Under the pieces are notes generated by a model. It had not been told where the DNA came from. It saw nothing but the letters and a program-made list of their open reading frames with translations, and did no database searches. DNA of 64,000 nt, from NCBI RefSeq assembly GCF_051903065.1, contig NZ_CP178438.1. One strand, given 5' to 3'. The position numbers and the translations under genes are program-made. This stretch comes from Escherichia coli. Its GTDB lineage: Bacteria; Pseudomonadota; Gammaproteobacteria; Enterobacterales; Enterobacteriaceae. Numbering within the stretch: position 1 is the first letter of the stretch; each line of letters opens with the position of its first letter. Positions 21,100 to 58,871 of the stretch are shown piece after piece.

Positions 21100-21222
21100 A
21101 CGCTTTTCCTTGTGGATCTCAACTCGCCAGCACCTATCTTACATGCCGGTCCGTATCAGAGATACTTTTTGAGTGGCTTTGCCGGTGATTAAAAATCAAG
21201 GAGGGTGTAACGACAAGTTGCA

Positions 21223-21400
21223 GGCACAAAAAAACCACCCGAAGGTGGTTTCACGACACTGCTTATTGCTTTGATTTTATTCTTATCTTTCCCATGGTAC
21301 CCGGAGCGGGACTTGAACCCGCACAGCGCGAACGCCGAGGGATTTTAAATTCTACGCAGGATCAATGAGTTACATAGCAGTGCATTGCGAAACTTTGCTG
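21223..21400. repeat. att direct repeat copy 1 (host-side leuZ terminator, displaced 56-nt 3' end of tRNA-Leu at 21295-21350, and about 50 bp of shared element-end sequence)
   Basis: Near-identical to 23538-23712; the part through gggattttaaat matches 58630-58754 inside intact leuZ. Confidence 0.85.
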
Positions 21401-21630: not shown

Positions 21631-22171
21631 CTAACTCTTTCGCAGAGCGAGTGAGTAGGAATTAGTCACAACCATCGCCTCATCACAACCATAGAATGTT
21701 TTAGCAGAGATCACCTGCTGCACCGCCGAGTTACCTACAGAACCAGAATAATTTTTCGCCTGAATAACCATATCCTTACCAAATCGAGTGACGAAGAGAT
21801 CTGCCCCCTGATCTTGCGTTCTCTTGGTTTCTTTGACGTCATAGCCCATAGTCTGGAATACTTCCACAAGGAAATCTTCAAACTGGAAACCGTCCATTGC
21901 ATCAACTAAATACATGGTGACGAATTTGTTAGGGTTAAAATGTTCGAGCCGTGTAGCTAATCTATCAACCAGAATATCAAAATAAATATGTTCGCACACA
22001 GCTAAGTATTTTTTAACTTCATCAAATGAAACTAAAGGAACACCAGGCGTAGCCTCCACTTTTTCATTGAACTCTACTGATGAGAACTCTATTTTATTGC
22101 TCCATATATAGAATAGAAACAATGAAAGATCTGCCCTAAAAGTGGTACCCGCTTCCTCAATCCATGACTTC
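21631..22171 (-). pseudogene. Mrr-type restriction endonuclease domain gene, 5' end removed by IS1
   Basis: ORF 21631..22185 begins inside the IS1 left end; product has the Mrr_cat-like motif GADLFVTRFGKDMVIQAKNY (D..QxK). Confidence 0.6.
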
Positions 22172-22939
22172 GGTGATGCTGCCAACTTACTGATTTAGTG
22201 TATGATGGTGTTTTTGAGGTGCTCCAGTGGCTTCTGTTTCTATCAGCTGTCCCTCCTGTTCAGCTACTGACGGGGTGGTGCGTAACGGCAAAAGCACCGC
22301 CGGACATCAGCGCTATCTCTGCTCTCACTGCCGTAAAACATGGCAACTGCAGTTCACTTACACCGCTTCTCAACCCGGTACGCACCAGAAAATCATTGAT
22401 ATGGCCATGAATGGCGTTGGATGCCGGGCAACAGCCCGCATTATGGGCGTTGGCCTCAACACGATTTTACGTCACTTAAAAAACTCAGGCCGCAGTCGGT
22501 AACCTCGCGCATACAGCCGGGCAGTGACGTCATCGTCTGCGCGGAAATGGACGAACAGTGGGGCTATGTCGGGGCTAAATCGCGCCAGCGCTGGCTGTTT
22601 TACGCGTATGACAGGCTCCGGAAGACGGTTGTTGCGCACGTATTCGGTGAACGCACTATGGCGACGCTGGGGCGTCTTATGAGCCTGCTGTCACCCTTTG
22701 ACGTGGTGATATGGATGACGGATGGCTGGCCGCTGTATGAATCCCGCCTGAAGGGAAAGCTGCACGTAATCAGCAAGCGATATACGCAGCGAATTGAGCG
22801 GCATAACCTGAATCTGAGGCAGCACCTGGCACGGCTGGGACGGAAGTCGCTGTCGTTCTCAAAATCGGTGGAGCTGCATGACAAAGTCATCGGGCATTAT
22901 CTGAACATAAAACACTATCAATAAGTTGGAGTCATTACC
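22172..22939 (+). mobile_element. insAB: IS1 copy 1 (768 bp, insA 22227-22502, insB frame 22421-22924), no target-site duplication
   Basis: Left end ggtgatgctgccaacttactgat and right end aagttggagtcattacc; Ins[40 protein letters not shown]; flanking 9-mers differ (catgacttc vs gccgcttca). Confidence 0.95.
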
Positions 22940-23364
22940 GCCGCTTCACGCAATATCATTTCAGGCTGGCCCGGGAGCTTAATATTCCTCCCCAGGCAAT
23001 CGTGTATGCCAATCTACTGGCGTGGGATTACGACGGACTGACCCCTCTCAATCGCCCTCAAAATGAAGTGCAGGAAGTTATATTAGCCTCGCTGAAGCTG
23101 CTGGCGGTACAAATTAAACACCTTGAGCCTGATTTCATCATCTTTGCATCTGGAGCCCGGAGAACAGACTACATCATAAAACAGGTGCTTACTGAGCTGG
23201 GCGGCTATGAGACTTCTGCAGTCATTCCGGGGAAGCTATGGGAGTTCAAAACAGGTAATGCAATCTGTTTCAGAATTGCCCATCCAAGGGCTATGCGCGG
23301 ACACAAGAAGTACAGAGATGAGGTGATTGCACGAATTAAGCAACTTTGTACTCAGGGTGGCTAG
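22940..23364 (+). pseudogene. 3' fragment of the 57717-58457 gene (UDG-like), truncated by IS1
   Basis: 22940-23600 is near-identical to 58033-58698; translation YANLLAWDYDGLTPLNRPQNEVQEV... matches the C-terminal 141 codons of the 246-aa protein. Confidence 0.8.
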
Positions 23365-23537
23365 AGCATTACAGTTTGCTCAGCAGGCCCCCCCTTCCCG
23401 GAAGAGTACCGGAAAACAGGCAAAGCGGCCTGGTTCTCTATGCTGGAGGCGACACGTTCAATTCGGCATTGCCAGGCTGTAGATTGCAGCTCATTGCACC
23501 CCGTGAGCACAGGATATGCACAGGGCGTGAATTGCAT

Positions 23538-23712
23538 GCACAAAAAAACCACCCGGAGGTGGTTTCACGACACTGCTTATTGCTTTGATTATTCTGATGT
23601 TTCCCATGGTACCCGGAGTGGGACTTGAACCCACACAGCGCGAACGCCGAGGGATTTTAAATTCTACGTAGGATCAATGAGTTACATAGCAGTGCATTGC
23701 GAAACTTTGCTG
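23538..23712. repeat. att direct repeat copy 2 (internal; terminator plus tRNA-Leu 3' fragment 23607-23662 with two substitutions)
   Basis: Aligns with copy 1 and copy 3; followed by element-end sequence that diverges after gaaactttgctg. Confidence 0.85.
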
Positions 23713-23938
23713 ACGTTGAATGGTCGTCTTTGCAACCACTGGCAGAAAATGGATAGCCGTAGATTGCGTTGAGCACAGAAACAGCACAGGGTAATCGTCT
23801 ACCTGGTCCTGTAAAGGAGGTTGTTGCCACACAAGCTAAAGCGCTTGACCTGCCCCCAGTATTCGGTACAACTGTCAGTTAGTAATGGACTGACCCCACC
23901 CCGGTAGACGATCCTGCCCTATAGTTACCTTTAACTAA

Positions 23939-26900
23939 TTATGCCAATTCAGACTCAAACGCTGCATCATTCGCTTCAGCCTCTGCGCCATCAATTAATG
24001 CCAAGACTCGGTCAAGAAAGCGTTGCGCTTCGTATACATCTGTTGCTTGCCGCAGATAATGAGGTATTCGTTCAACAAACTCGGAACGTGATAAAGGCTG
24101 ATGTTCCAGCAAAGCCTCAAGCATTGCGGGCCGCAACAAACGACGATCAGCATCAACATTAGGAAGCTCAACCTCAATGACATGTGTGGCAAAATACTTA
24201 AGTTGCTCCTTAAGCCCCAAATTGGGCATAAGAGAATCAATTGAGTCAGACGCCACTTCAGCGCTTGACTCAATCGTTTCTACATATTCATAGGAAGGTA
24301 CAACAACGTCTGGAGCCAATGTTTTAAGCTCATGGAGTTTACGGATAATCGGAGATAGAACCTCATCAGGATTACTGAACCAATCAGTGGACCAAATGCG
24401 GCTAATTCTCCAACCCAAACGCTCCAGAACCTCTTGACGCAAACGGTCACGATCACGAGCAGATTTAGCTGAGTGATAAGCCGCACCATCACACTCTATG
24501 CCCATTAAGTAACGGCCAGGACAACCTGGATCTTTCACAGCTAGATCAATAAAGAATCCTGCAACCCCTACCTGAGGTTCACACTCAAACCCAGCGTGAT
24601 TGAGTGCTTCCATTACAGCAACCTCAAAGTCACTATCTGGAGCCCTGCCGGTATGCGTTGTGAGGGAATCTAGTTTGCCACTTTCGGCAAACTGTAAAAA
24701 ACCTTTCAACGAAATAACACCAAGTTTACTGATTTCACTCGTCAATACATCTTCAGAACGCATTGAACTAAACACATGCATCCGTTTTTTTGATCGAGTG
24801 AAAAGCACATTCAAGCGACGCCAGCCAACATCGGAATTGATAGGTCCAAAGCGTTGATAAACCTTTCCACCATGCTCAGAAGGTCCATAGGTAAAGGAAA
24901 TAAAGATTACATCACGCTCATCCCCTTGAACGTTCTCAAGGTTTTTCACAAAAAGTGGCTCTTCCATGGCATATAAGCCATCGATTGCATCGTTAAATTC
25001 AGGGCGATTTCGGCGCAATTCATCGATAGCGCGCTCAATTTGATCGCGTTGCTTGGAACTCATGGCCACTACCCCGAGTGACTCACCCGGCCGGTGTTGC
25101 GCATGATGAAGTACGGCCTCAGCAACTGCTTGGGCTTCTTCAATATTGTGTTGATTGGAGAACCGACCTTTTGACACATAGGTAAATTTAATCCCATACT
25201 CTGGAGACTCAGCATTTGGGGAAGGGAATATCACCAAATCACTGTTATAAAAATGGCGGTTAGAGTATGCAATCAACTTTTCATGTCGTGAACGATAGTG
25301 CCAACGCAAACGTCTCATAGGAAACAGTGGCAAAGCAGCATCCAAAATGCTGTCAGTATCACTTAAAGCCGCGGCATCATCGTCATCTTCTCCGTCGGCA
25401 CTTCGATCAAAGAAACTGGTTGGTGGTAGCTGTTTCGGGTCACCAACGACCACTAGTTGCTTGCCCCTCGCGATGACACCCAATGCATCCTCTGGCTTCA
25501 CCTGAGACGCTTCGTCCATCACCACCAGATCAAATTCCATTCGTCCAGGTTCTAGGTAATGAGCTGCTGACATTGGCCCCATCATGAAACAAGGTTTAAT
25601 TGCAACCAGCGCATTACATGCACGGTTAACCAATTGCCTAATTGGAATATGTCTGGTTTTTTTACCCAACTCATTTTTGATCAAAGCTAGTTCTGTATAT
25701 TCACTTTTCTTACCACCAGAATTCCCTTCTGGTATATTTCGGCAAGCAATTTTTGCTGCAATCCGCTGACGTTGTAATTCAATCAGTTTTTTATCGTAAT
25801 CTTTAAATGACTTCTGCAAAGCATTGCGCTGTGAGCCGGAAACTCTCATCAATTCAGGGTGGATGTGAATAACCTCCCGCGCCAGCTGGTCATGAATTGC
25901 TAATGCTAAACCCAATTCAACTTTTTCAATCGGGAGCGAGCCCGCAAGTACAGCACTCCAGATTCGCTGCAATCCATTTTCATGCATCTGCTCGTAACAA
26001 CGAATAAAGTTAACCCACCCGTTCAACCAACGGGGTTGCTGTATTGCTCTTTCGTTGCGCTCGATTAATGTATTAAGAGAACCATCAGTCGACTTGAGCC
26101 ACTGACTCCGCTCTAACTTTGTTTCTAGCGCATATAACTCAGCATTTTTAATCTGTTCATTCCATTTCGAAACTATTTCCCCACCATCACGACATAGTAA
26201 ATCGTAATCACTACCACTAGCCAAATGTCTGATCTGGGTAGCCAAGGATACGCAATTTATCTTATCAACCAGTTGCTCGGCAAAATTCAGCGTGTCGTTA
26301 ATAGTGTCTAACGTCAGTTGATTATTTTTATACGCACCGCAAGCCAATGGGGTTAATTGTAAAAACGCCCCTAACTGTAACGAGTCATTTTCAAGGGATA
26401 TCTGAAGATCGTTTATGTTTTGCAAAATCTCGGAGGAATGAGTCATCTGCTCTAATGATATATCTGGATTGATAAACCATCCCTGCAAGGCAATGAGAGT
26501 ATTCCGCACCTGTCGGTAAGATTGCATCAATACACCTTGCTCACCTAACCAAGATGCATGTTCTTCCAACAAGCTAGAAATACGCGGTAATAACTTAGCC
26601 TCGTGCTCGACCCGTTTAACCAAAGTCATTAATCTTGAGCTAATCTGCGATTTCTCGATTAAATGCACACCTTTGATAATCTCACCATCTAGGTTAAATA
26701 ATCCAGAGCCTATCGCAACTCGCTTTCCAAAACCTATCCCGTAACAAGCTCGGACCTTCTTGTACCAATCACGCAATAACATGAGTTGTTCACAGTCGGT
26801 GTCCAACCCTCGGAATGCATTACCAAGTTGATTACCAAAGTCACTTTGTTCAAACCGTTGTAACAGCTCCGAATACTTGAGCAAATCAGCTGAGCAGCGT

Positions 26901-29686
26901 TTTAACTCAGCAAACTTAGTGTCAGGCTTACGAGATTGCGCCATGAGCAGTGCCTTGGCACTACGCCAATCACTCTTAAACCATGCAAATAATCCCCCTT
27001 GCTGGATAACAGCAACGGCATGCGCGAGCATCTCTTGGGAAGGCAACTGGTCCAATTGATACAAAGTAGATAGACCATCTCTTAAAGGACGCAATGTTTC
27101 GATTTGACACATTAAGTCGCGCAATACTGCATCGATATCATCATCATCAAAAAGAGGATCTCGAACTCTAATAAGCTCAGTCGGTAAAGCACCCAGAATC
27201 GACAACAACTCAGAGCAGAATAGCAATCCAGCTTGCGAATCATCGATATACGAAGCAATACCATCTGGCAAAGCATTTTTGAAATCGTTTAATTGCGCAT
27301 AAATAGATGATAACTCATCATGAATTGATTGGATGGATTCAAGCCACCTGACCAAATCACGTAAAGTGAAATCCTCTGCTGCACCATATTTTTCCAGCTC
27401 TTCACGAGGAAAGTCACACGATTGTCCTTGTTCTAAAAGTCGTAGCTTTTGAGGCTCGATAACCTGGCTCAAGGCCACATAATGACCTTGTAGCAACTCG
27501 AACCTATCTAAATAGTGACGCACCCGTGCAATGGCATCGGGTGAATCTAGCTCACTAAGTGCTGGGAAATGCTCTGAACCACACAACACTGGAAGATTCG
27601 ACTGATCTTCTACCAATTGCTCAATATATTGAAGCGTATTAAGGCTTTCGCCTTCTAACGCCCACTTATCTACATATTCTTGATAGCTATGTTGAAAGTC
27701 GATAATTGATGTCTGCCAAGTTTGTAGCAAATCGACTATACGAGCGCTGTCAAACAATTGAATTTGTGTGTTATTCACACCGCTCCAAGGGTGCTCATAT
27801 ATTTCTGCATTAGCCCCCACCTGCTCACGAACCTCTTTGTAGATGCGGCTAAACTCTACTATTTGGTCACGCAGCCGTAATTGGGTCACTTTATCCAACT
27901 GCTTCCCGGAAAGGTTTTCGATATGAAGTGCTGTTGCATCAATATCTAATTTGTGACGATAACGGGTTGCACCACTCAAAATCTGATGGATCGTTTTGCC
28001 TGTTTGCGCCCATTGGTTATTGATCAATGCGGCATATTCATTGAGCTGCTGCTTAAGATCTTCATAACGCAAAATCTGAGCATCAATCTCTTCCATAGTA
28101 GGCATGGTCGCCTGACTCACCAAGCGAGCATTAATATCATCCAGCACCTTGCGCTTATGAGTTTTATGACTGTGCAACTCTAAGCAAAATTGACCTAGCC
28201 CCGCACGATCCAAGCGACGTTTGACGACCTCCAGTGCAGCCATCTTCTCTGCCACAAACAGGACTTTCTTACCGTTGAGCAGAGCTGCTGCAATCAAGTT
28301 GGTGATCGTTTGTGATTTGCCACTACCAGGAGGGCCCTCAATGACTAAGTTTTGACCACGGATAGCATCGATCAACGCACTGTGCTGCGAGCTATCCGCA
28401 TCATCGATTAGTGGAACCTTGTCATGAATATCAGGGTAACTATCGATGCAGTACTCATGCTGACCGAAGCCACCAGGTAAGCCGGAATTCTCTTGACCAC
28501 AGCTCTGACTGGTGAAAAAGCGACGAATTACTTCATGAGACAATATATTGCGCTTGTCACAAGGCCAGCGGGCAGGATCGAGGTCAAGATACATCATCAT
28601 CTTGCCAAAATTGAGCAAGCTAAGTGCACCATAACGTTTCACAGACCATTTAGGTTTGTGCTGCTCTACAACCTTCTTCACCGAAGCAAAATAAGACTCT
28701 GGAGTTTCCTCTTCATTGAACAAAGGAAGAGCGAGGCCAAAGTCAGCCTGAAGTTTTTCCTTCAAAGAGAGATTGGGCAAAATATCTTCACCCGTGTAAT
28801 AAAGTTGAAACTTGTAAAGACCATCCTTCGGATCTAATTTTCCTCGTTCACATCTCACCGGAATTGTAAATAACGGTGCATAACGTGCCTTTTCAGAGGA
28901 ATCGCTTTCATACCACTCAAGGAACCCTAACGCCAAATACAAGATGTTGGCGCCACTCTCCTCCAAAGCAGTTTGAGCCTTACCATAGATGGCGCGCAAA
29001 CAAGCTTCCAGTTCATTTGGATAAAGCAGAGCCTGTATCCGATTATCGTCATGAGAGGGATTGGAAGAAGATATACTAATCTCATTCCCAGCCTTTGCCT
29101 GTCGTTCAAAATCCTCAAGCCCTTCATAGCCTGCTAAGCAGCACGCCTCCTTCAACGCTGACAAAGCTATACCTTGATTAACGTATTCAGAACGAATCCC
29201 TGTTAATTTTCCATTCTGGCCTTGGGCATATTGCAAGATAAACTGATGGGCTTTTTCCAGCAACTCTCTATCTGAATCAGAAACAACCGTTTTATGGCTA
29301 TCTGGTAAATCAAAATCTGTACGGATTCCTAAGACGTGCGCCCAATCCTTAGCGCTAGGATGAGCTCTTAACTGTATATCTTTACCATCTGGCCCAACTT
29401 TGAGATAGCCATGCTCTAACAGCTGCGCTCTAGTTGGATCGGGCACAGGAGCAAATTCCATCGGGATTTCCGAGCAAAGGGTTTCATAAAGCTGTTCTGG
29501 TAATTCATCAACAATACGTAGTGAAGACCCTTTTTGAGTGATAGGGAAATTCAAAAGTCGATTTCGAGACGTAAGGTCCAATAACTTCTTACGCATAGCC
29601 TCGAGGGAAGTCAGAATAAAATCTGAGCCTCCTTGATTGAGTTCCTCTGCTGTAGAGGTATCTACAGTCGACATAATGTTCTCCAT
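23939..29686 (-). CDS. 1915-aa DUF4011 / SF1 (Upf1-like) helicase / Vsr-like (DUF559) endonuclease protein; resembles single-gene Hhe-type defence proteins
   Basis: N-terminus LLDLTSRNRLLNF; Walker A GPPGSGKSQT; Walker B and motif III DLVVMDEASQ...VVVGDPKQLPP; C-terminal GFFIDLAVKD...GIECDGAAYH...RDRDR. Confidence 0.75.
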   Translation of the reverse strand: MENIMSTVDTSTAEELNQGGSDFILTSLEAMRKKLLDLTSRNRLLNFPITQKGSSLRIVDELPEQLYETLCSEIPMEFAPVPDPTRAQLLEHGYLKVGPDGKDIQLRAHPSAKDWAHVLGIRTDFDLPDSHKTVVSDSDRELLEKAHQFILQYAQGQNGKLTGIRSEYVNQGIALSALKEACCLAGYEGLEDFERQAKAGNEISISSSNPSHDDNRIQALLYPNELEACLRAIYGKAQTALEESGANILYLALGFLEWYESDSSEKARYAPLFTIPVRCERGKLDPKDGLYKFQLYYTGEDILPNLSLKEKLQADFGLALPLFNEEETPESYFASVKKVVEQHKPKWSVKRYGALSLLNFGKMMMYLDLDPARWPCDKRNILSHEVIRRFFTSQSCGQENSGLPGGFGQHEYCIDSYPDIHDKVPLIDDADSSQHSALIDAIRGQNLVIEGPPGSGKSQTITNLIAAALLNGKKVLFVAEKMAALEVVKRRLDRAGLGQFCLELHSHKTHKRKVLDDINARLVSQATMPTMEEIDAQILRYEDLKQQLNEYAALINNQWAQTGKTIHQILSGATRYRHKLDIDATALHIENLSGKQLDKVTQLRLRDQIVEFSRIYKEVREQVGANAEIYEHPWSGVNNTQIQLFDSARIVDLLQTWQTSIIDFQHSYQEYVDKWALEGESLNTLQYIEQLVEDQSNLPVLCGSEHFPALSELDSPDAIARVRHYLDRFELLQGHYVALSQVIEPQKLRLLEQGQSCDFPREELEKYGAAEDFTLRDLVRWLESIQSIHDELSSIYAQLNDFKNALPDGIASYIDDSQAGLLFCSELLSILGALPTELIRVRDPLFDDDDIDAVLRDLMCQIETLRPLRDGLSTLYQLDQLPSQEMLAHAVAVIQQGGLFAWFKSDWRSAKALLMAQSRKPDTKFAELKRCSADLLKYSELLQRFEQSDFGNQLGNAFRGLDTDCEQLMLLRDWYKKVRACYGIGFGKRVAIGSGLFNLDGEIIKGVHLIEKSQISSRLMTLVKRVEHEAKLLPRISSLLEEHASWLGEQGVLMQSYRQVRNTLIALQGWFINPDISLEQMTHSSEILQNINDLQISLENDSLQLGAFLQLTPLACGAYKNNQLTLDTINDTLNFAEQLVDKINCVSLATQIRHLASGSDYDLLCRDGGEIVSKWNEQIKNAELYALETKLERSQWLKSTDGSLNTLIERNERAIQQPRWLNGWVNFIRCYEQMHENGLQRIWSAVLAGSLPIEKVELGLALAIHDQLAREVIHIHPELMRVSGSQRNALQKSFKDYDKKLIELQRQRIAAKIACRNIPEGNSGGKKSEYTELALIKNELGKKTRHIPIRQLVNRACNALVAIKPCFMMGPMSAAHYLEPGRMEFDLVVMDEASQVKPEDALGVIARGKQLVVVGDPKQLPPTSFFDRSADGEDDDDAAALSDTDSILDAALPLFPMRRLRWHYRSRHEKLIAYSNRHFYNSDLVIFPSPNAESPEYGIKFTYVSKGRFSNQHNIEEAQAVAEAVLHHAQHRPGESLGVVAMSSKQRDQIERAIDELRRNRPEFNDAIDGLYAMEEPLFVKNLENVQGDERDVIFISFTYGPSEHGGKVYQRFGPINSDVGWRRLNVLFTRSKKRMHVFSSMRSEDVLTSEISKLGVISLKGFLQFAESGKLDSLTTHTGRAPDSDFEVAVMEALNHAGFECEPQVGVAGFFIDLAVKDPGCPGRYLMGIECDGAAYHSAKSARDRDRLRQEVLERLGWRISRIWSTDWFSNPDEVLSPIIRKLHELKTLAPDVVVPSYEYVETIESSAEVASDSIDSLMPNLGLKEQLKYFATHVIEVELPNVDADRRLLRPAMLEALLEHQPLSRSEFVERIPHYLRQATDVYEAQRFLDRVLALIDGAEAEANDAAFESELA

Positions 29687-29860
29687 TTCTTAGGGTCCAC
29701 AAGTAAAACGTTTTATGCTGATGCATCACAAAAAGACCGCAGTAAACTGCTGCAAAGAAGAGGAGATTTTTAGTCTCCCCTTCTTTATCAATCAGATCAT
29801 ACAATCAACTTAACGCCCATTAGTTGATAGCAGCCAAATTTCATAAACAGATTCAATCCG

Positions 29861-31903
29861 TTATTGCTGAATTTGATTGGATAGTAAGACCTGCAACATA
29901 TCTTGTTGATGCACAGCTATCTCATCTTCCAGCCAACGACCTTTATCTTTCATCAGCCGAATCATAGCAAGCAATTTAAGACTATCAGTCTGGTTATTGG
30001 CAAGGCTTGCTTCAAAGTGCTCCTGCTTCTGTTGCGGCTGGAAGTTACTCAAGCGCGAGTTCTTGCTGTGGCTGATAAGGCAAAGGTTGCCAAACGAATG
30101 GAGTGCACTCTGCTCAACCGGTTTATAGCCATCCATCGGATGCTGGGGTGAGAAGTGCTCCACCGAGCTGCGGAAAGTGAACTCAAAGGAGCCAGCAACT
30201 TTGTCGCTATTCCGATCTCGTACCCACAGCAGATAGTCGAGGAAGTTGAAGACAAAGTTGTTCTCGATATGACCGAAGCGAAGTTTGGATGTAATCACCT
30301 TGTGCCAACTCTCATCCACATTGATGGCGGGCAACAGGGCGTTATCAAGGTAGAGCATCTGGTAATAGGAAGCCCCTTCACCAGGCGCCAAAAAGCGCTG
30401 GAAGACAAAGCGGCGAGCCTGACTCTCCAGATAGGACAGATAAGCCCCGGCATCCACCGGTTGATCAGGGTGACAATTGTCGAACAGATATCTCAGTGCA
30501 CCATTCAGCCAATGTTTGTAAACCAGGGTCGGGGTCGACACATGAAACGCCGACAGCAACATCAGGACCCGCCGGTTAACACCAGAGAAACCATTCTCAT
30601 TTTCATCCTTGTCAAAGGTATTGATGTAACTGACGCTCTTTTCCGAATACCAGTGCAGCCGCTTCAGACTCCAACTATCCTTGCCATCGGCAAACTCGCG
30701 CTTGATGATGAACTGATCAAACAGATACTTGCTCTTTAACAGGCCATAGATAAAACGCTGAACTGCCGCTACTGGATCCGGTTGCCTTATCACTCGCAGC
30801 TCAAACTGATCGACCAGTTGTTTATCATCAAGCGGCACCCCCTCCGTATCACCCGGGTCGCGGCTCACGAGTCGCAGCACATGGAGCAAGAAGTTGGAGA
30901 AGTTGATGACGCTGTTAAAGCGCTCGGAGCCTGCGCTCTCCTCCTCCACCGTCTGCTCACCATCAAGCTTGTCATCCTGCAAAATGGCCAACAAGGTGCG
31001 CCCTTGGCTACCGGCAGCTGCACGGCTTTTATCGGCAGCGTCGGCCGTGTTTGGGGATCCTAGCAGATCAAGCAGATGGGCAAAGTCACGGGGCACAAAC
31101 TGACCCCAGTCGCTCTCACCAAACAGACGGTGGCGCTCTTGCGGGGTAAAGCCGTACTGGATATAGCGCTCCATATTGGCGCAGGCATCCCATACCCGGG
31201 TCAGGATATGAATACTTTGGCGACGATGCTCTTCCTCGGGTATCTGGTTCAGCGTCTCCATCAGCCGCGCCTTGATCACTTCATGCTTTTCCAACTGCTC
31301 GCCGCGATTGTTCATCGCCTCGAAGAAGTGATTGAGATCGGTATCCTTGGGTACTTCGATACGAGAGATCTGCACATGCTTGAAGAGGTAGTCGCAAAAG
31401 GTCGTCAGTTTAGCCCCTACCAAACCAAGATCCGCCATTGCCTTGCCAATCAGCTCAAAACCGTTCACCAAACCTTCATTGAAGGTACTCCCCCGCAAAT
31501 CGTAGGGGGCAACACCCTGCCATAAGCGCTCGAAGGTATGGCTCGATATCGGGCGACTCTCAAAAGCGAGGTTGATGGTCTGATACCAGCTCATATCCAC
31601 CGAATCTATCGCGTGATGTTTGAGCCAATTGGCCAGCAGAGAGAGGGTAGTAAAGCGCTGCTGGCCATCGATTACCTCGAAACTGCCATCGTCCCGGGCA
31701 AACACCACCAGGGTGCCGATATAGTAGGTTTGCGGCCCCTTACCACTGACCAATTTTTGCTGATAATCCAGCACATCCTGCAGCAGCTGGGTGATCTCTC
31801 CCTCACCCCAGGCATAGTTGCGCTGGTACATGGGCACCAGATAGCGGGCGCGATCTTCAAGCAGTGCACGAATGGAAAAGGGGCGAACGCCTGCATCATT
31901 CAT
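29861..31903 (-). CDS. GmrSD-like protein (N-terminal DUF262, C-terminal DUF1524 His-Me finger nuclease), putative type IV restriction component
   Basis: DUF262 motifs [16 protein letters not shown] and DGQQR; DUF1524 motifs VEHFSPQHP and [17 protein letters not shown]; 8-bp overlap with the upstream gene. Confidence 0.75.
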
Positions 31904-33350
31904 AATATTTCATCTCCCGAAACAGCCCGACCAGCTCATCTTCGGCACCATTGCGATTGTTCTTGTTCTCTCGACTGCTCATGCTAGGCAAAGGGAAGCC
32001 GTGCAGATCTCCCGGCAGACGAGCATCACGAATGGCACGGATCAGATTGTGCTCCAGCACATAGTTATCCATGGTTGCCAACTGCACTACCTGCTGGCGG
32101 ATGCGGCAGCGATAGGCCCAGATAAAGCACTTCTCGATGGCCAGTGACAGCCCTTGGCTGCCGAACTTGTCGATATAGAAGATCAGGGCGCAGTCGAACA
32201 TGGCCCGCACATAACGATCCCCGGTGCGGTGGCGACGCTCGTAGCTGCCCAGGGTCGATAGCACCTTGCTGGCCATCGGTGTCAGCGTTTCGCCGAGCAG
32301 GGTGGCAGATTGCGCCTTGCCGGAATCAGACTCCTCGGCCACGATGGCGGCCACCCGCGTCTGGTAGTACTCGGCCATCTCGAAAAAGCGCCGACCATTG
32401 ATGATCATCTGGTCGAGATGAAAGGGAAACGTCATGTACTGGCCGTCAATCTTGCGCTGGTACTGGCGGTTGTACTCATCGACAAAGTGGTGGGCGATGC
32501 GCAGCGACTCCACGTAAGGATAATGCCCTACCCGATCTAGGTTGACCCCCTTGAAGAGATCCACCTCCCCCTTGCCAAAGTAGCGGGCCGACTTGCCCTC
32601 GGCCCACTGGCGTACCCGATAGAGATAGAGGGCGAACAGATTGGCCAGCTCGTCGCTTGGCAGGCGCTCCCAATGGGCGACCGCCTCGGCCTTGAGATTG
32701 GCCTCATGACCGGCAAACTCGCGCAGGTGAAATGCCTTGAGCAGATCGTGAGGAGCCAGATCGCGCCCCCGGGCATTTTGCGAATCGAAGAACTGGAACG
32801 CCTCCGAGATATCCTGCAGTACAAAGCAGACCACCTGACAGCGGTTGAGCAGAAAGTCAATTTGCTGCTCGTCAAACTCAGGGCGGGCCACCAGCCGACG
32901 CAACTCCAGATAGTTGCGTCTGAGGTTGAACTCCGAATCCCGGCTGGGGAAGCGCTGGCGCTGCATAAACGCATCGATAGGTCCACGCAAGACCTGCAAT
33001 TGCTCACGCAGATCCTGACGTTGAAACCGGATACTCTTCTCTTTGCCACTGCGATTTTCGTTATCCAGCACCTCGATCAGCGCCTTGACGGTCAACATCA
33101 GGGTCAGGGTGCGTTGCTGACCATCGACGATATCAAGCATCTCGCCCTGCTCACTATCGGTGTGCTGATGAAACACCACCGAGCCCAGCCGGTAGGCGCT
33201 CTTGTCCTGATGGGTTGCCAAATCGGTAAAGAGATCCGAGATATTCTTGGAGCCCCAGCGGTAAGGTCGCTGATAGCTTGGGATGGCCAGTTGGGGAATG
33301 GCCAGCAACTGGCGTACCGACTGCACTTGATTATTAATGCTCTCCATCAT
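31896..33350 (-). CDS. DUF262 (ParB/Srx-like NTPase) protein, GmrS-like, no recognisable nuclease domain
   Basis: Motifs [22 protein letters not shown] and DGQQRTLTL; translationally coupled to the DUF262-DUF1524 gene. Confidence 0.7.
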
Positions 33351-33371
33351 GCCTCCTGCGGTATGAAGTGG

Positions 33372-33973
<602 letters not shown>

Positions 33974-34004: not shown

Positions 34005-34760
34005 CTACATATCTGCCAACAACATCCCAGCCATACCATCCAGTCGCTTCTTAACCTTTTCCCAGCCCGGCATAACCTGCCCCATCAGACGGTAAAACTC
34101 CTCGCTGTGGTTGTGCTCAGCCACATGGCATAACTCATGTAGCAAAACATAATCGATACATTCTGAGGATGCCTTAACCAGCCATGGATTCAGGGTCAGA
34201 CAGCCTTTTGCTGAACAGTTGCCCCATTGCGTTTGCATCGCCCGCAGACGTATCGGAGGACGCTCACTGACCCAAAGGGTCTGCGGAATCAGTAAATCAA
34301 GCCTGCGCTGAAAAACATCTCTGGCACGTTCCCGATACCATTCAGCCAGCAAGGCTTTAATCTTTTCTGCCGATTTGTGTCTGACAGTCACTTCCAGACG
34401 CCCACGCAACATTTTCACTCGTTGCGGCACAGTAGCGTCTTCTGTCACTTTCAACTGATATTGCTTACCGAGATAATAATGGCTTTCTCCGCTGACATAC
34501 TGACGCGGAACAATGTGTATCTGTTGCTCCCTGAAATCACGCAGTTGCTGGTATATCCAGCGCCCACGTTTTTTCAGCGCAGACAATACCTCGTGCTCCG
34601 GTGTTTCAGGCGGTACAGAGGCCACAACCCGGCAGTCCGGATAAACCTTAATGAGCACCCTGCCCTTTACGACCTGACGCGGAACACACTGTACGACGAT
34701 GACCTCATCACCATAGACAATGCGTAACGCTTTCATTGATGGCGATTCTTTTTCACTCAT
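34005..34760 (-). CDS. DUF45/M48-family zinc metallopeptidase (YgjP-like), often linked to type I R-M loci
   Basis: 251-aa ORF with HExxH motif HELCHVAEHNH; ATGA overlap with the hsdR stop. Confidence 0.7.
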   Translation of the reverse strand: MSEKESPSMKALRIVYGDEVIVVQCVPRQVVKGRVLIKVYPDCRVVASVPPETPEHEVLSALKKRGRWIYQQLRDFREQQIHIVPRQYVSGESHYYLGKQYQLKVTEDATVPQRVKMLRGRLEVTVRHKSAEKIKALLAEWYRERARDVFQRRLDLLIPQTLWVSERPPIRLRAMQTQWGNCSAKGCLTLNPWLVKASSECIDYVLLHELCHVAEHNHSEEFYRLMGQVMPGWEKVKKRLDGMAGMLLADM

Positions 34761-37700
34761 GATTTCATCAAACCAACGCGCAGTATCTGGATGATGGTTT
34801 CCACAATACGGTTAACCTGATTCATTCCGGCACCAATTTCCCGGCAGGCCGTAAACAGCAGTGGTAGCAGACTTGTCTTAACGACTTTCTCAATGTCCTG
34901 GGGGTTCAGGGAGTTTTCTGCCACCGCTCTAACGATAATGCTGTCCACTTCAAAAGCCAGCTTCGTCCACTTATCCTGCACCTGAACGTCTTTTACCACA
35001 AAAACCTCAGGTAGCTCTTTTTTAAATACACCGTAATACGCCTGAGCATGCTTGTTTACCGCCAGTGCATCCGGGATATCGCTGAGCTTACGGGCTTCAA
35101 CCTGTTCTTCAAACTCACGGAATAAGAGGTACTGCTTAAGTGGATGGTCGAACAGTTTTTCAGCCTCTTCGATTGCCATACGCAGGAGTCTGGAAAAGGC
35201 CTCCTGAGCATACGGATCATCACGCAGCTCCTGCTCAATCATCTTCGTCACACGGGTTTTAATGATGTCGGTTTCATTGCGGGTTTTATTGTTGTCCCAC
35301 TCTTCGGGCTTTTCGCTCTTACCCATTTTACCGACTTCATACACGCCATCCGGTTCACGAACCTCAACGCCGGTGACATGCTTATCCAGCAGTTTTTTCA
35401 CCTGCTCGGCGTAGTCGTCATAATTGACCTGCTCTCCACTGACCTGCATCGCCCACTGGCGCAGGCTGGACATCTGTTTTACGGTTTCTTTATAGAGGTT
35501 TCGGTCTTGTTCCGTAAAGCTCTTGTCGGTGAAGAAGGTGGCGGACTGCAGTGCCACTTTCAGGCATCCGGCAAAGGCCGTTAACGCCTCGAAGAAATCA
35601 TCACGGGTTTTCTGATGGATATCGACCATCTCTCCGTCACGTTCTTCCATTTTAGGCACCAGTACCGCACGTAACTGCTCAGTATCATTTTTGTTTTTGA
35701 CACCAGCAAATATGGCCCACAGCTGGTTATACAGATGCGGCAGGCGCTTGTATTCAGAGCTCATGGCGCTGTACAGCCCGTCAATATCTTTGATGTCGTA
35801 TCCGCCCTGAGTTCGGGAGGCGAGGTCCTGATATTTGCCGATAGTCGTGTCCAGCTCAGCCAGAATACCGCGATAATCAATCAGCAGACCGAACTTTTTT
35901 AGTGGATGCAGTCGGTTCACCCGCGCAATCGCCTGGATAAGGTTGTGGGACTTAAGCGGCTTGTCGATATACAGCACGGTATTCTTCGGCTCATCAAACC
36001 CGGTGAGCAGTTTATCAACGACTATCAGCAATTTGAGCTTCTCATCGGTATCGAAACGACTGATGATATTGCGGGTATACACAGACTCATCCTGCGTGCC
36101 GACGTTATCTTTCCACCATTTCGTCACTTCCGGCAGTTTGCTTTCATCCACCTCAGTATTCCCTTCCCGGGTATCCGGCGGGCTGATAACTACAGCTGAC
36201 TCAAACAACCCGGCTTCATCAAGATACTTTTTATATTTGATGGCGGAAATCTTGCTGTCGCAGGCAAGCTGGCCTTTCAGCCCCTCATCAATATTCTTCG
36301 AGAAGTGCGTGGCGATATCGAGTGCGATCAGACGGATGCGATCATCTGCACTATAAACCTCACCTTTACGGGCATATTTACGCTTAAGGTCGGCTTTTTG
36401 CGCTTCGCTTAACCCATCGGTAATACGATCAAACCAGGCATCTATTGCCCGATCGTTAACCTCAAGGTCGGGAATACGTTCTTCATACAGCAAAGGTGTA
36501 ACGGCTTTATCTTCTACCGCTCGCTGCATGGTATAAGCGTGGACAATCGGTCCGAATTTATTGGTGGTCTTATCTTCTTTTAGCAATGGCGTACCAGTAA
36601 ATGCTACAAAGGCGGCGTTCGGCAGTGCCAGTTTCATTCGCACATGGTTCTCACCACCCTGGCTACGGTGTCCTTCATCAATCAGAACGATGATATCGGG
36701 GCTGGTATTGACGCATTCAGGAAGTTTTGTCGCTGAATTAAATTTCTGGATTAGGGTGAAAATGATGCGTTCTTTACCGGAGCCAATCTGTTTCGCCAGC
36801 ATCTGCCCGGATGTCGCCATTGCATTGGCTTTGTCTTTTTTCCCGGCCAACTCGCCGCCGGATGCAAAGGTACTGCTGAGCTGTTCTTCAAGATCGATAC
36901 GGTCCGTCACCACCACGATACGACACCGCTTCAGGCTGTCATGAAGGATCAGCGCCTTGCTGAGGAACACCATGGTGTACGATTTGCCAGAGCCGGTGGT
37001 ATGCCAGATAACACCACCTTCCCTGCCCCCATCGGGTCTGCGGGTACTGATGCGTTCCAGCAGTCTTTTAATCCCGAACACCTGCTGATAGCGGGCAACA
37101 ATTTTTCCGGTCTTTTTATCAAACAGGGTGAAGAAGCGGGTCATCTCCAGCAGACGTTCCGGCGAAAGCAGACTGATGAGCAGCTTATCCTGCCCGCTGA
37201 CAGCCAGTTCCCCCCCGGCGATTAACTGCTGATACCAGTTGAGATCGCCAACAGGACGATGCTCAAATAACGCATCAATTTGTTCAGTCGATAAAGGATG
37301 GTTGCGCAGGGCATACATCTGCGCATCGGTAATATCCTCTTCGCGCCATGCCGCCCAGAATTTCATTGGCGTATGGCATGTACCGTAGCGCCCGTCATGA
37401 CCGTTAATCGAAAGTAATAACTGGCTGTAGACAAACAGCTGCGGGATTTCATCGTTGAACTGGTTGCGGATACTCTGGGATATCCCCTCGTCAATGGTTG
37501 GCCCTTTCTTGCCATGACCAGCCGGGCTTTTCGCTTCAATAACAGCCAGCGGGATACCATTAACAAAGCAGACAATATCTGGCCTCCGGGTTTCAACACC
37601 ACCTGACCGCAATACCGTAAATTCTTCAGTAAAATGGAACTGGTTATTTTCCGGATGTTCCCAGTCGATCAGCGCAATGGTGGGGTTGACCTTCTTGCCA

Positions 37701-38044
37701 TCGACAAACTCCGTGACGGCGATACCGTAGAGCAGATGGTTATACATCCGCTCATTGGCTTTGAGCAGCCCTTCATTCAGCGCCGGAGAACAGACCTGTG
37801 ATATCAGGTTATCCAGTGCTTTTTCCGATAACTGGCAGGTTTTGCCACCCGCCATAAAGGAACGCTTCGACAGCTCTTCACGCAGAACCGGACGCAGCAC
37901 CACCTCATCCTGTTTATAGCCCCGGTAATCCATAATCTGTTTCGGAGATAAAAACGCCCAGCCGAGGCTGGTCAGTAACGTCAGTGCCGGAATTTTGGCG
38001 CTGTATTCTTCCTGGAATTTTGGCGTGTACGTCTGGTTCATCAT
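34757..38044 (-). CDS. hsdR: type I restriction enzyme R subunit
   Basis: 1095-aa ORF MMNQTYTPKFQEEYSAKIPALTLLTSLGWAF; helicase motifs HTTGSGKSYTMVF and VLIDEGHRSQ; operon with hsdM and hsdS. Confidence 0.9.
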   Translation of the reverse strand: MMNQTYTPKFQEEYSAKIPALTLLTSLGWAFLSPKQIMDYRGYKQDEVVLRPVLREELSKRSFMAGGKTCQLSEKALDNLISQVCSPALNEGLLKANERMYNHLLYGIAVTEFVDGKKVNPTIALIDWEHPENNQFHFTEEFTVLRSGGVETRRPDIVCFVNGIPLAVIEAKSPAGHGKKGPTIDEGISQSIRNQFNDEIPQLFVYSQLLLSINGHDGRYGTCHTPMKFWAAWREEDITDAQMYALRNHPLSTEQIDALFEHRPVGDLNWYQQLIAGGELAVSGQDKLLISLLSPERLLEMTRFFTLFDKKTGKIVARYQQVFGIKRLLERISTRRPDGGREGGVIWHTTGSGKSYTMVFLSKALILHDSLKRCRIVVVTDRIDLEEQLSSTFASGGELAGKKDKANAMATSGQMLAKQIGSGKERIIFTLIQKFNSATKLPECVNTSPDIIVLIDEGHRSQGGENHVRMKLALPNAAFVAFTGTPLLKEDKTTNKFGPIVHAYTMQRAVEDKAVTPLLYEERIPDLEVNDRAIDAWFDRITDGLSEAQKADLKRKYARKGEVYSADDRIRLIALDIATHFSKNIDEGLKGQLACDSKISAIKYKKYLDEAGLFESAVVISPPDTREGNTEVDESKLPEVTKWWKDNVGTQDESVYTRNIISRFDTDEKLKLLIVVDKLLTGFDEPKNTVLYIDKPLKSHNLIQAIARVNRLHPLKKFGLLIDYRGILAELDTTIGKYQDLASRTQGGYDIKDIDGLYSAMSSEYKRLPHLYNQLWAIFAGVKNKNDTEQLRAVLVPKMEERDGEMVDIHQKTRDDFFEALTAFAGCLKVALQSATFFTDKSFTEQDRNLYKETVKQMSSLRQWAMQVSGEQVNYDDYAEQVKKLLDKHVTGVEVREPDGVYEVGKMGKSEKPEEWDNNKTRNETDIIKTRVTKMIEQELRDDPYAQEAFSRLLRMAIEEAEKLFDHPLKQYLLFREFEEQVEARKLSDIPDALAVNKHAQAYYGVFKKELPEVFVVKDVQVQDKWTKLAFEVDSIIVRAVAENSLNPQDIEKVVKTSLLPLLFTACREIGAGMNQVNRIVETIIQILRVGLMKS

Positions 38045-38093
38045 TAATCCTTTTCTTTCTGGCGCTACTCGCTACTGGTCACATGAAGATTCA

Positions 38094-38777
38094 TCAATGC
38101 AGACAGCACCTCTTAAATTTTTTACCGCTGCCACACGGACACGGGTCATTTCGCCCGGGCATGTTTTCTGCCCCCTTCACTGGAACAGGCCGGGATGATG
38201 CCTCTGACATTCTCACTGACAACCAGTACTGATAAAGTGCCAGTGCAGCAGGCTGAATAAGGGAAATACTTTTCTCAAACTGCTCTCCGGTCATTTTCTC
38301 AAGTACAGGAAAATTCTTCTCCACGCCATGAAGAGCGATCACTTCCAGAGAAGGCCGTAACTCACCGGGAAGACCAGACCAGTCATCCAGTGACTTTCCT
38401 TTCATATAACCAAAACACCACTCTTCCACAATGGTATATTTTTCCCCCTTTACCTCACGCTCATTGAAAATCGGTTCAAACTGTTCAGGGGCCTCATACA
38501 GGCAGCCAGCGATATCGTTCATATGCTGAAAACACAGCCCCACAAAACGCGTCATCTCTTTTTCGGTGGTCCAGCGAGGGTGGTAATCACCTCGCCCCCA
38601 GATAGCACTGAGCCAGGTATTAGGGGAAATCGTATTCGGGCCAGAGACAATCGCTGTCAGAAAGCCATCCAGCTCAGAGAAACAGAGCACAGAATCATCA
38701 TTGCCGTATTTCAGCAACACCTCTTCCAGCCAGTCGATTTCCCGGTCAATCAGCGGCCCGCTTTTCGTCAGTTTCAT
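38094..38777 (-). CDS. YecA-like UPF0149 / SEC-C motif protein, paralogue of chromosomal yecA, inside the hsd operon
   Basis: 227-aa ORF MKLTKSGPLIDREIDWLEEVLLKYG... aligns along its length with YecA (20434-21099), including [11 protein letters not shown] and the terminal [21 protein letters not shown]; start overlaps hsdS stop, 49 bp before hsdR. Confidence 0.85.
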   Translation of the reverse strand: MKLTKSGPLIDREIDWLEEVLLKYGNDDSVLCFSELDGFLTAIVSGPNTISPNTWLSAIWGRGDYHPRWTTEKEMTRFVGLCFQHMNDIAGCLYEAPEQFEPIFNEREVKGEKYTIVEEWCFGYMKGKSLDDWSGLPGELRPSLEVIALHGVEKNFPVLEKMTGEQFEKSISLIQPAALALYQYWLSVRMSEASSRPVPVKGAENMPGRNDPCPCGSGKKFKRCCLH

Positions 38778-57666: not shown

Positions 57667-57716
57667 GAAAATAATATATATCTGAAGGTGTTTTTATTAC
57701 GGGGCAGGATTGAAGA

Positions 57717-58457: not shown

Positions 58458-58629
58458 AGCATTACAACTTGCTCAGCAGGCCCCCCTTCCCGGAAGAGTA
58501 CCGGAAAACAGGCAAAGCGGCCTGGTTCTCTATGCTGGAGGCGACACGTTCAATTCGGCATTGCCAGGCTGTAGATTGCAGCTCATTGCACCCCGTGCGC
58601 ACAGGATATGCACAGGGCGTGAATTGCAT

Positions 58630-58754
58630 GCACAAAAAAACCACCCGAAGGTGGTTTCACGACACTGCTTATTGCTTTGATTATTCTGATGTTTCCCATG
58701 GTACCCGGAGCGGGACTTGAACCCGCACAGCGCGAACGCCGAGGGATTTTAAAT
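58630..58754. repeat. att direct repeat copy 3 (element-borne terminator plus the 3' 56 nt of intact leuZ)
   Basis: Matches copies 1 and 2 through gggattttaaat, after which the intact tRNA continues. Confidence 0.85.
58634..58657 (-). terminator. Rho-independent terminator of the glyW-cysT-leuZ operon (also present in att copies 1 and 2)
   Basis: Minus-strand hairpin aaccacc-ttcg-ggtggtt followed by ttttttt. Confidence 0.75.
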
Positions 58755-58785
58755 CCCTTGTGTCTACCGATTCCACCATCCGGGC
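58699..58785 (-). tRNA. leuZ: tRNA-Leu (UAA anticodon)
   Basis: Reverse complement reads GCCCGGATGGTGGAATCGGTAGACACAAGGGATTTAAAATCCC...CTCCGGGTACCA (87 nt, CCA end). Confidence 0.95.
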
Positions 58786-58797
58786 TCGGGAAGAAAG

Positions 58798-58871
58798 TGG
58801 AGGCGCGTTCCGGAGTCGAACCGGACTAGACGGATTTGCAATCCGCTACATAACCGCTTTGTTAACGCGCC
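58798..58871 (-). tRNA. cysT: tRNA-Cys (GCA anticodon)
   Basis: Reverse complement reads GGCGCGTTAACAAAGCGGTTATGTAGCGGATTGCAAATCCG...GCGCCTCCA (74 nt). Confidence 0.95.

Follow-up and report, generated by a model that had tools for sequence, protein, structure and literature searches.

The window, a stretch of 64,000 nucleotides of Escherichia coli DNA, carries a large gene that we identify with high confidence as hhe, a known anti-phage defence gene whose product is a helicase-nuclease. Here the gene belongs to the exchangeable cargo of an E. coli pipolin at tRNA-Leu and lies at the integrase-distal end of that element. Defence by hhe as a single gene has already been described and is not new. 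The value of the annotation itself is small, as RefSeq, PADLOC and NCBIfam already have hhe under its name and both the type of its host element and its cargo status have been published.

Identity and domain architecture of Hhe

The preliminary description of this region reported a single large reading frame, and this frame is real: the longest hhe frame in the ORF listing occupies 23939-29686 on the minus strand, with 1915 codons from an ATG start, and by our own arithmetic the chance of 1915 stop-free codons is about (61/64)^1915, or roughly 1e-40. The length of 1915 amino acids reported there holds for the longest frame, but most likely not for the protein. The fifth codon, at 29674, is also an ATG and is preceded by a GGAG Shine-Dalgarno sequence. 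Both the GGAG and this ATG are kept in four homologous loci, the first ATG is absent from two of those four, and the RefSeq coding sequence likewise begins at codon 5. For these reasons we prefer a start at the conserved Met5, from which the coding sequence (23939-29674, minus strand) most likely specifies 1911 amino acids. Two numberings are in use below, one for the 1915 residues of the longest frame and one for the 1911 residues from Met5. A scan for sigma-70 promoters returned 12 matches against 13.7 in shuffled sequence and, since this is the shuffled level, we make no claim of a promoter.

PADLOC, NCBIfam and RefSeq all lead to the same name. The PADLOC Hhe model scores 4302.8 bits, with residues 5-1915 matching model positions 1-1911 of 1911, and the NCBIfam equivalog NF042953.1 (Hhe_antiphage) reaches 2735.9 bits where the cutoff is 2000, with residues 23-1894 aligned to profile positions 1-1797 of 1797. 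RefSeq WP_065944754.1, product name "anti-phage protein Hhe", is 100% identical. These matches bear out the Hhe-type single-protein architecture proposed at the outset. When the window gene is set beside the described system (hhe/HheA; PADLOC PDLC02194; NF042953.1), all tested features match, and the start codon is the sole refinement.

The combination of a DUF4011 region, a split SF1 helicase and a DUF559/Vsr-like nuclease, also part of that early proposal, was recovered in full by Pfam search. All Pfam domains of the protein, DUF4011, AAA_11/AAA_12 and DUF559 among them, lie above their gathering cutoffs, and each of the 120 best homologues has this set as well. The N-terminal DUF4011 region (28751-29587, minus strand; residues 34-312 in 1915-aa numbering; E 1.6e-37) holds a helical insert of about 80 amino acids, around residues 120-200, that most homologues are without. 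It is followed by the N-terminal part of RecA1 with motifs Q, I and Ia (28202-28393, minus strand), matched by AAA_11, AAA_19 and AAA_30 at residues 432-495, with the Walker A motif GPPGSGKS at residue 451 (1915-aa numbering). An all-alpha-helical insertion in RecA1 of about 840 residues (25655-28177, minus strand; residues 500-1340 in 1911-aa numbering) then splits the helicase core; measured as the gap between Pfam matches, the split is roughly 840-880 residues. The C-terminal part of RecA1 and RecA2 follow at 24764-25543 (minus strand; AAA_11 at 1382-1424, AAA_12 at 1459-1641), carrying motifs II (DEASQ, 1391), III (GDPKQLPP, 1415), IV (YRS), V (QGDERD) and VI (TR) in 1915-aa numbering. Judged by its motifs, the Upf1-like SF1B-type ATPase/helicase core is intact.

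Downstream of the helicase lies a Vsr-like PD-(D/E)xK nuclease (MTES_1575/DUF559; 24335-24628, minus strand). The MTES_1575 endonuclease family matches residues 1687-1784 (E 4e-37, 126.6 bits against a cutoff of 38.2) and DUF559 matches residues 1728-1784 (24.4 bits against 20.6). The putative catalytic set is D1714, E1731, D1733 and H1738 in 1915-aa numbering, or D1710/E1727/D1729/H1734 in 1911-aa numbering; E1731, the Glu of IECDG, is the glutamate of the published E1731A mutant and is present in the window copy. Within the tail of about 130 amino acids that closes the protein (23942-24334, minus strand), about 40 residues form a conserved stretch, LLRPxMxEAL...P.SxxEF.E.IP.YLR, whose conserved columns fall at residues 1846-1878. 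The tail has no Pfam match and no family assignment. Fold searches returned no structural relative for the DUF4011 region or the helical insertion, a PDB sequence search returned no Hhe structure, and a literature search on DUF4011 found no mechanistic paper.

Across the 120 homologues, 357 positions are at least 97% invariant, including Walker A and B and the D/E/D/H of the nuclease, and the catalytic motifs of both enzymes are intact in the window protein. Decayed copies, IS-disrupted or truncated, are found in other E. coli strains. Together these observations uphold the earlier argument that integrity speaks for function, and the window copy is intact and probably functional.

Relatives, phenotype and proposed mode of action

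Two families, ProA and the PADLOC candidate PDC-S37, are sisters of Hhe. ProA (NF058533.1) has a helicase-nuclease body in common with it and aligns to residues 194-1794, but its score of 1132.8 bits is below the 1500-bit equivalog cutoff, and hence Hhe is not a member. A literature search on ProA returned no relevant paper. PDC-S37 covers residues 1028-1877 (1267 bits), which is the C-terminal half of Hhe only.

In its helicase Hhe has the same motif set as the Upf1-like SF1B enzymes (Q, I, Ia, II, III, IV, V and VI). The nearest PDB sequences are IGHMBP2, Sen1, Upf1 and Dna2, by short and weak matches (E 1e-7 to 1e-3); IGHMBP2 is nearest to the N-terminal part of RecA1, and Sen1, Dna2 and Upf1 to its C-terminal part and RecA2. 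TIGR00376, the IGHMBP2 family, matches in part. Upf1 has its domains 1B and 1C in RecA1 between motifs Ia and II, and the accessory material of Hhe sits at the same place. Dna2 also joins a Upf1-like helicase to a PD-(D/E)xK nuclease. What sets Hhe apart from the Upf1-like enzymes is the insertion of about 840 residues, made of helical bundles without structural relative, together with the C-terminal Vsr-like nuclease and DUF4011, the latter found on the Hhe side only. Among defence systems, Hachiman HamAB, Nhi and Mokosh MkoA/MkoC follow the same logic of helicase sensor or motor and nuclease effector, an analogy of mechanism only. MkoA and MkoC have the AAA_11/AAA_12 region in common with Hhe, the match being confined to the C-terminal part of the helicase, whereas Hachiman consists of two proteins with an SF2-type helicase, unlike Hhe. 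Hachiman has been described as a DNA-integrity sensor (PMC12278908); for Hhe there is no evidence of DNA-damage sensing.

Hhe is reportedly part of the Gao et al. 2020 defence panel, an attribution that comes from citing papers. An origin in Vassallo et al. 2022 was considered and dropped, because neither Hhe nor DUF4011 nor Vsr is named anywhere in it and the citing papers trace the gene to the panel of Gao et al.

As a single gene, hhe is reported to defend E. coli against lambda, T3, T7 and PhiV-1, not against T4, and the nuclease mutation E1731A to abolish this defence (10.1101/2022.06.16.496414). One laboratory found only very weak defence against T7. In the literature, gene g40 of phage Bas63 is toxic solely in cells with hhe, and several T7 class II genes of DNA metabolism score as hhe triggers. 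The PhageMaP preprint adds that the NAD+-synthesis genes g79 and g80 of Bas63 raise phage fitness on hhe cells, an effect limited to plaque size.

We hypothesize that Hhe stays inactive until a DNA-metabolism activity of the phage creates a signal, which would be an aberrant DNA structure or else an altered state of the host. The DUF4011 region, the large and fast-evolving helical insertion, or both would probably be the sensor. ATP-driven translocation by the helicase would then bring DNA to the C-terminal nuclease, which would cut phage DNA, and probably host DNA too, so that infection stops. Taken alone, these steps stand at about even chances in our judgement, and we infer the substrate (DNA or RNA), the polarity, the trigger and the discrimination of self from non-self alike. 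Upf1-like helicases often act on RNA, which we count against a model of DNA cutting.

The NAD+-gene effect in Bas63 is not predicted by a simple DNA-cutting model. The PhageMaP authors suggest that depletion of NAD+ or adenine may be involved. In a rival explanation Hhe would kill or arrest the infected cell mainly by depleting nucleotides or NAD+, or by some other non-nucleolytic route, with the nuclease as sensor or regulator. We think this very unlikely: Pfam and PADLOC scans of Hhe found no NADase, Sir2, TIR or nucleosidase domain, and defence needs the catalytic glutamate of the nuclease (10.1101/2022.06.16.496414). The g79/g80 effect on plaque size could itself be indirect if, for example, NAD+ is spent on the repair of DNA damage.

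Neighbouring genes and the question of cooperation

In the window, hhe travels with two DUF262 genes in a 9.7-kb cargo block (23925-33610), delimited by blastn against a Klebsiella plasmid. The block is 99.8% identical to its counterpart on that IncFIB conjugative plasmid. One of its borders lies 14 bp beyond the stop codon of hhe, and an IS1 remnant (33598-33973) bounds the opposite side. DUF262 gene 1 (31896-33350, minus strand) encodes 484 amino acids with GmrSD_N (2.1e-28) and DUF7834 (1.3e-76), and gene 2 (29861-31903, minus strand), which overlaps it by 8 nt, encodes 680 amino acids with GmrSD_N (1.8e-29) and GmrSD_C (1.5e-11). Both resemble the GmrSD/SspE/DndB-like DUF262 type IV enzymes. 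The 680-aa protein has the complete GmrSD-like architecture, with both Pfam domains above cutoff, and its best PADLOC matches (HEC-06, Orf5 and SspE) concern the N-terminal domain only; the 484-aa protein differs from GmrSD in that DUF7834 replaces the nuclease. Neither protein has a full-length match to any PADLOC or NCBIfam model, and within these libraries the pairing of the two genes does not correspond to a described system.

A gap of 186 nt between the DUF262 genes and hhe holds two hairpins (29736-29780, minus strand), the first followed by a T-rich run, that were picked up by a scan for terminator-like sequences. In a comparison of two sequences, an Aeromonas locus retains both stems, with paired changes. 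The hairpins look like an intrinsic terminator parting two transcription units, which we offer as a weak suggestion.

The position of hhe beside the DUF262 pair had raised the question of cooperation. Copy numbers in E. coli cannot answer it. Of 5426 complete E. coli genomes, 308 have the gene, the cluster of 100%-identical Hhe proteins has 4010 member sequences, and Hhe is present at 99% identity or above (99.7%) on more than 200 Klebsiella plasmids. All E. coli copies, however, are more than 99% identical and thus represent one recently spread block, so their co-occurrence with the pair is no test. Cooperation was instead examined with divergent homologues, in 13 Hhe contexts (the window and 12 others), a small and phylogenetically clustered sample. 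The DUF262 pair is present in 5 of the 13, namely the window block, its Klebsiella plasmid copy and the three loci whose Hhe is 84%, 79% and 65% identical, and absent from the other 8; co-occurrence is thus not obligate.

A single cooperative system of three genes, in which the pair senses or nicks modified DNA or regulates Hhe and all three would be needed for full activity or spectrum, is in our view unlikely. It is true that the three genes adjoin one another in 242 E. coli genomes and on Klebsiella plasmids, that their order is kept at 84, 79 and 65% Hhe identity, and that the DUF262 proteins diverge in parallel (94-97%, 84% and 74-77%). Yet the pair is missing beside Hhe homologues of 89% (remnant only), 62, 62, 61, 60, 56, 54, 53 and 46% identity, and the 89% homologue, which keeps only a DUF262 remnant, is the closest sampled outside the >99% block. 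At one locus (L008) DarT-Macro fills the slot of the pair, in ETEC strains (H112-H114) hhe is intact although the DUF262 gene next to it is truncated, the gap with its conserved hairpins parts the pair from hhe, and published papers treat hhe as sufficient by itself. On the question of cooperation, what is borne out is that the three genes move as one block. Because the pair is absent from 8 of the 12 other homologue contexts, we consider that it most likely forms a GmrSD-like, type IV restriction-like unit of its own, which is transferred together with hhe but which Hhe does not require as a partner.

Type I restriction-modification (R-M) genes are a commoner neighbour of Hhe than the DUF262 pair: hsd genes lie within 7 kb in 9 of the 13 contexts, in at least four arrangements and with two types of hsdR. 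Four loci have hhe 18-21 nt upstream of hsdR, in operons of the order hsdM-hsdS-[variable cargo]-hhe-hsdR-YgjP, and the Klebsiella plasmid copy is followed by a 54-codon hsdR remnant. These arrangements could mean that Hhe is functionally tied to type I R-M, for example by processing DNA after its engagement or cleavage by HsdR, or by backing up R-M when phages inhibit it. It is well known, however, that unrelated defence genes settle in type I R-M operons; the window's own operon of the same kind holds PDC-S12, and DarTG occupies the slot at L008. Given also that 4 of the 13 contexts have no R-M nearby and that so small and phylogenetically clustered a sample was compared, we regard a functional tie as quite unlikely.

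A wider proposal, which we hold to be doubtful, joins Hhe with type I R-M, the GmrSD-like pair or both in a layered nuclease module, with a coupling that is functional beyond the clustering of defence islands. If it were true, Hhe might, for example, degrade DNA engaged by those enzymes, or act against unmodified phages and leave the modified ones to the GmrSD-like pair. It draws on the spacing of hhe and hsdR and on the co-divergence of the DUF262 pair with hhe in one clade.

The pipolin and the exchange of its cargo

The island that holds hhe has the features of a pipolin: a type-B DNA polymerase (piPolB, by RefSeq annotation), one or more site-specific integrases and DUF2787, also by annotation, and direct att repeats at tRNA-Leu in three copies. 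The pipolin att site is known as the tRNA-Leu between pgsA and yecA (PMC11551731). In the window, attC (58624-58804) overlaps an intact tRNA-Leu (58699-58785, minus strand, by ARAGORN) and is the integrase-proximal end. The internal copy, attB (23532-23712), repeats the 3' end of tRNA-Leu with its terminator and marks the integrase-distal end, and the outer copy, attA (21218-21400), adjoins yecA; all three copies were found by repeat search and three-way alignment. The region at 21.4-23.5 kb is a gutted second element with an Mrr-like endonuclease fragment (Pfam Mrr_cat on a 184-aa ORF), an IS1 and a second, truncated version of the hypothetical gene that lies at about 57715-58455. As first described, hhe lies at the edge of its element: it is the outermost pipolin gene, with attB about 230 bp beyond its stop codon.

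Such a position, adjoining att, and the carriage of hhe by both pipolins and conjugative plasmids could suggest that the gene chiefly serves its mobile element, for example by excluding rival plasmids or elements or by processing element DNA, and that the anti-phage effect, very weak in one study, is a by-product of over-expression. We find this most improbable. Some homologues lie in plain chromosomal contexts without mobile-element genes, triggering specific to phage genes has been reported (PhageMaP preprint), and the study of pipolins names hhe as an exchangeable cargo gene and not as core (PMC11551731).

The near-identity of the block in E. coli pipolins and on Klebsiella conjugative plasmids, such as the one at locus L012, makes it a clean case of recent exchange of defence cargo between types of mobile element.

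A full-length hhe gene

The preliminary description proposed a single-protein Hhe-type defence architecture, and we conclude from sequence comparison that the gene is the known hhe itself and not a mere relative. The PADLOC Hhe model is covered whole (residues 5-1915 against model positions 1-1911 of 1911, 4302.8 bits) and the NCBIfam equivalog Hhe_antiphage, whose curated cutoff is 2000 bits, gives 2735.9. The E. coli matches already carry the annotation "hhe: DUF4011 domain-containing anti-phage protein Hhe", and the cluster of 100% identical proteins holds 4010 member sequences. Two other identities were rejected: the sister family ProA scores 1132.8 bits, below its cutoff of 1500, and PADLOC PDC-S37 matches the C-terminal half only. 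Citing papers credit hhe to the defence panel of Gao et al.; Hhe is absent from Vassallo 2022.

As previously described, hhe is one open reading frame of 1915 codons (23939-29686); it starts with ATG, and we now place it on the minus strand. By our own arithmetic the chance of such a stop-free run is ~(61/64)^1915, or ~1e-40. The true start is probably codon 5, the ATG at 29674, because this ATG and the GGAG Shine-Dalgarno sequence 6 nt 5' of it are invariant across four homologous loci, two of these four lack the upstream ATG, and RefSeq annotates the 1911-aa form.

A Pfam search backs every domain that had been named from the sequence. In 1915-aa numbering these are DUF4011 (residues 34-312, E 1.6e-37), the N-terminal part of an SF1 helicase (AAA_11/AAA_19/AAA_30, 432-495, with Walker A GPPGSGKS at 451), the C-terminal part of AAA_11 (1382-1424, with DEASQ at 1391), AAA_12 (1459-1641) and a C-terminal restriction-endonuclease-like MTES_1575 domain (1687-1784, E 4e-37), which is overlapped by a weaker DUF559 match that is still above its cutoff. 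The closest solved proteins by sequence are the Upf1-like SF1B helicases IGHMBP2, Sen1, Dna2 and Upf1. Members of this family typically carry their accessory domains within RecA1, in the stretch from motif Ia to motif II, and the split in Hhe therefore falls at the canonical site. However, the insertion is unusually large, the two helicase parts being more than 850 residues apart.

Across 120 homologues that all share this Pfam architecture (43-100% identity), 357 positions are at least 97% invariant, and these cluster in the helicase motifs, the nuclease (D1710, E1727, D1729 and H1734 in 1911-aa numbering) and part of DUF4011 (for example G250-F-L-E-W254). In the same alignment, conservation is low over residues 640-1200 (0.36-0.49). 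Within DUF4011, residues ~120-200 (29074-29326) form an extra helical segment of ~80 residues in the E. coli/Aeromonas clade, missing from most of the 120 homologues (gap fraction 0.55-0.76). Confident AlphaFold models, built on 60-sequence alignments, predict a mixed alpha/beta domain with a helical sub-bundle for the DUF4011 region (1-430, pLDDT 80.8) and a wholly alpha-helical insertion (500-1340, pLDDT 88.4).

A pipolin cargo gene and its DUF262 companions

The window covers the E. coli chromosome around yecA and pgsA and contains three att repeats derived from the 3' end of tRNA-Leu and its terminator: one adjoining yecA (21218-21400), a second at 23532-23712, and a third (58624-58804) overlapping the intact tRNA-Leu (58699-58785). 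A pipolin occupies the stretch between the second and third copies, with piPolB, two tyrosine recombinases, DUF2787 and a type I restriction-modification (R-M) system among its contents. Its insertion site matches that described for pipolins in PMC11551731, where hhe is explicitly named as an exchangeable cargo gene. The gene had been placed at the element edge and is indeed outermost, ~230 bp from att at the integrase-distal end. The additional att copy makes the arrangement tandem, the 2.3 kb between copies 1 and 2 being a gutted second element with a fragment of an Mrr-like restriction endonuclease (21631-22185, minus), an IS1 (~22228-22925) and a truncated duplicate (22940-23365) of the hypothetical gene at ~57715-58455 that adjoins the tRNA-Leu end of the pipolin. 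Elsewhere in the island, its lowest-GC patch (0.34-0.37) holds two orphan genes of ~410 and 376 aa (41869-43104 and 43611-44741, both plus) with no Pfam or PADLOC match; these may be the 'orphan' pipolin core genes of PMC11551731.

Upstream of hhe lie two minus-strand DUF262 genes overlapping by 8 nt, which encode a 680-aa protein (29861-31903; GmrSD_N and GmrSD_C) and a 484-aa protein (31896-33350; GmrSD_N and DUF7834). Matches to PADLOC HEC-06, Orf5 and SspE are confined to the N-terminal domain common to both, and neither protein matches an NCBIfam model. The 186-nt gap between the pair and hhe contains two hairpins, of which the first precedes a T-rich run, and both stems are kept in Aeromonas with paired changes.

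By megablast hhe occurs in 308 of 5426 complete E. coli genomes, in 305 at 99% identity or more. At 80% coverage or more, hhe is found in 263 genomes, the pair in 253 and the two adjacent in 242. About 45 of the 308 carriers have no copy at that coverage, so hhe is frequently lost. In E. coli genomes H69, H108, H109, H111 and H115-H122 the gene is broken by ISKpn26, IS100, IS3 or IS1, or reduced to fragments. Hhe at 99% identity or more is also encoded on more than 200 plasmids, and one Klebsiella IncFIB conjugative plasmid (NZ_CP028930.1) shares a 9.7-kb block with the window (23925-33610) at 99.8% identity. Remnants of IS1 and an integrase core (33598-33973) separate this DUF262-hhe block from the hsdR-M48 segment, and the IS1 junction with the same segment order is also present on that plasmid.

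Whether the DUF262 pair cooperates with Hhe had been raised as a question. The E. coli copies are all more than 99% identical and represent one recently spread block that is uninformative about function, and we took divergent homologues as the informative test. The triad is kept at 84% Hhe identity in Aeromonas (DUF262 proteins 94-97%), at 79% (84%) and at 65% (74-77%). In contrast, the pair is missing from an 89% homologue, where an intact Hhe has no more than 81 residues of the 680-aa gene left upstream of it, and is likewise absent at identities of 62, 62, 61, 60, 56, 54, 53 and 46%. Some E. coli strains also combine intact hhe with a truncated DUF262 gene, and others the pair with an IS-disrupted hhe. 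From these observations, and from the hairpins in the gap, we conclude that the pair has long travelled with hhe in one clade and is not a required partner.

Proximity to type I R-M operons

A neighbour of Hhe more frequent than the DUF262 pair is type I R-M, with genes no further than 7 kb away in 9 of 13 contexts, and homologues sit inside or beside such operons at loci L002, L013, L007 and L008, and also at L003, L010, L014 and L015. In the first four, hhe is 18-21 nt 5' of hsdR, in the order hsdM-hsdS-[DUF262 pair or DarTG-like DarT-Macro]-hhe-hsdR-YgjP; in others hhe comes after hsdMSR, or hsdR is of another type and differently oriented. Directly after hhe on the Klebsiella plasmid (11734-11895) is a 54-codon remnant of an Aeromonas-type hsdR (87% identity), which suggests that the E. 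coli/Klebsiella DUF262-hhe block originated by excision from such an hsd operon. In the window this remnant is missing, the shared block ending 14 bp beyond the hhe stop codon.

The window's own operon (34005-41565, minus) comprises hsdM (40009-41565), hsdS, a YecA/UPF0149 and SEC-C protein (38094-38777; full-length PADLOC PDC-S12, 2.3e-99), hsdR (34757-38044) and an M48/YgjP-like peptidase (34005-34760), all on the minus strand. Unrelated defence genes are known to settle in type I R-M operons, as PDC-S12 illustrates here, and we therefore read the closeness of Hhe to hsd genes as island clustering; a functional link between the two is a minority possibility.

A hypothesis for Hhe activity

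Experimental reports on Hhe are limited to its phage spectrum and its need for the nuclease; substrate, polarity and trigger we infer. PDB sequence and literature searches found no structural or biochemical study. The substitution E1731A, in the glutamate of the invariant IECDG motif of the window protein (1915-aa numbering), abolishes activity, T4 is not restricted whatever its cytosine modification, and protection against T7 was very weak in that laboratory (10.1101/2022.06.16.496414). In the PhageMaP preprint, T7 g1.4-g2 and g2.8 act as triggers, Bas63 g40 is toxic only in hhe cells, and the NAD+-synthesis genes g79 and g80 aid Bas63 on such cells.

Triggering has been reported for a number of unrelated T7 class II genes and for Bas63 g40, and Hhe would therefore sense a consequence and not one protein. 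We hypothesize that Hhe is most likely inactive before phage DNA-metabolism activity makes a signal, that its Upf1-like motor would then translocate on nucleic acid using ATP, and that the Vsr-like nuclease would cut the translocated nucleic acid. The obvious places for sensor or autoinhibitory parts would be DUF4011 and the rapidly evolving helical insertion. As a trigger gene is toxic to hhe cells in the absence of infection, Hhe may not spare host DNA, and the outcome would then be of the abortive type. The NAD+ observation is unexplained by this helicase-then-nuclease model. With hhe already described, the remaining novelty lies in the mechanism of Hhe and in its proximity to type I R-M genes and the GmrSD-like pair.
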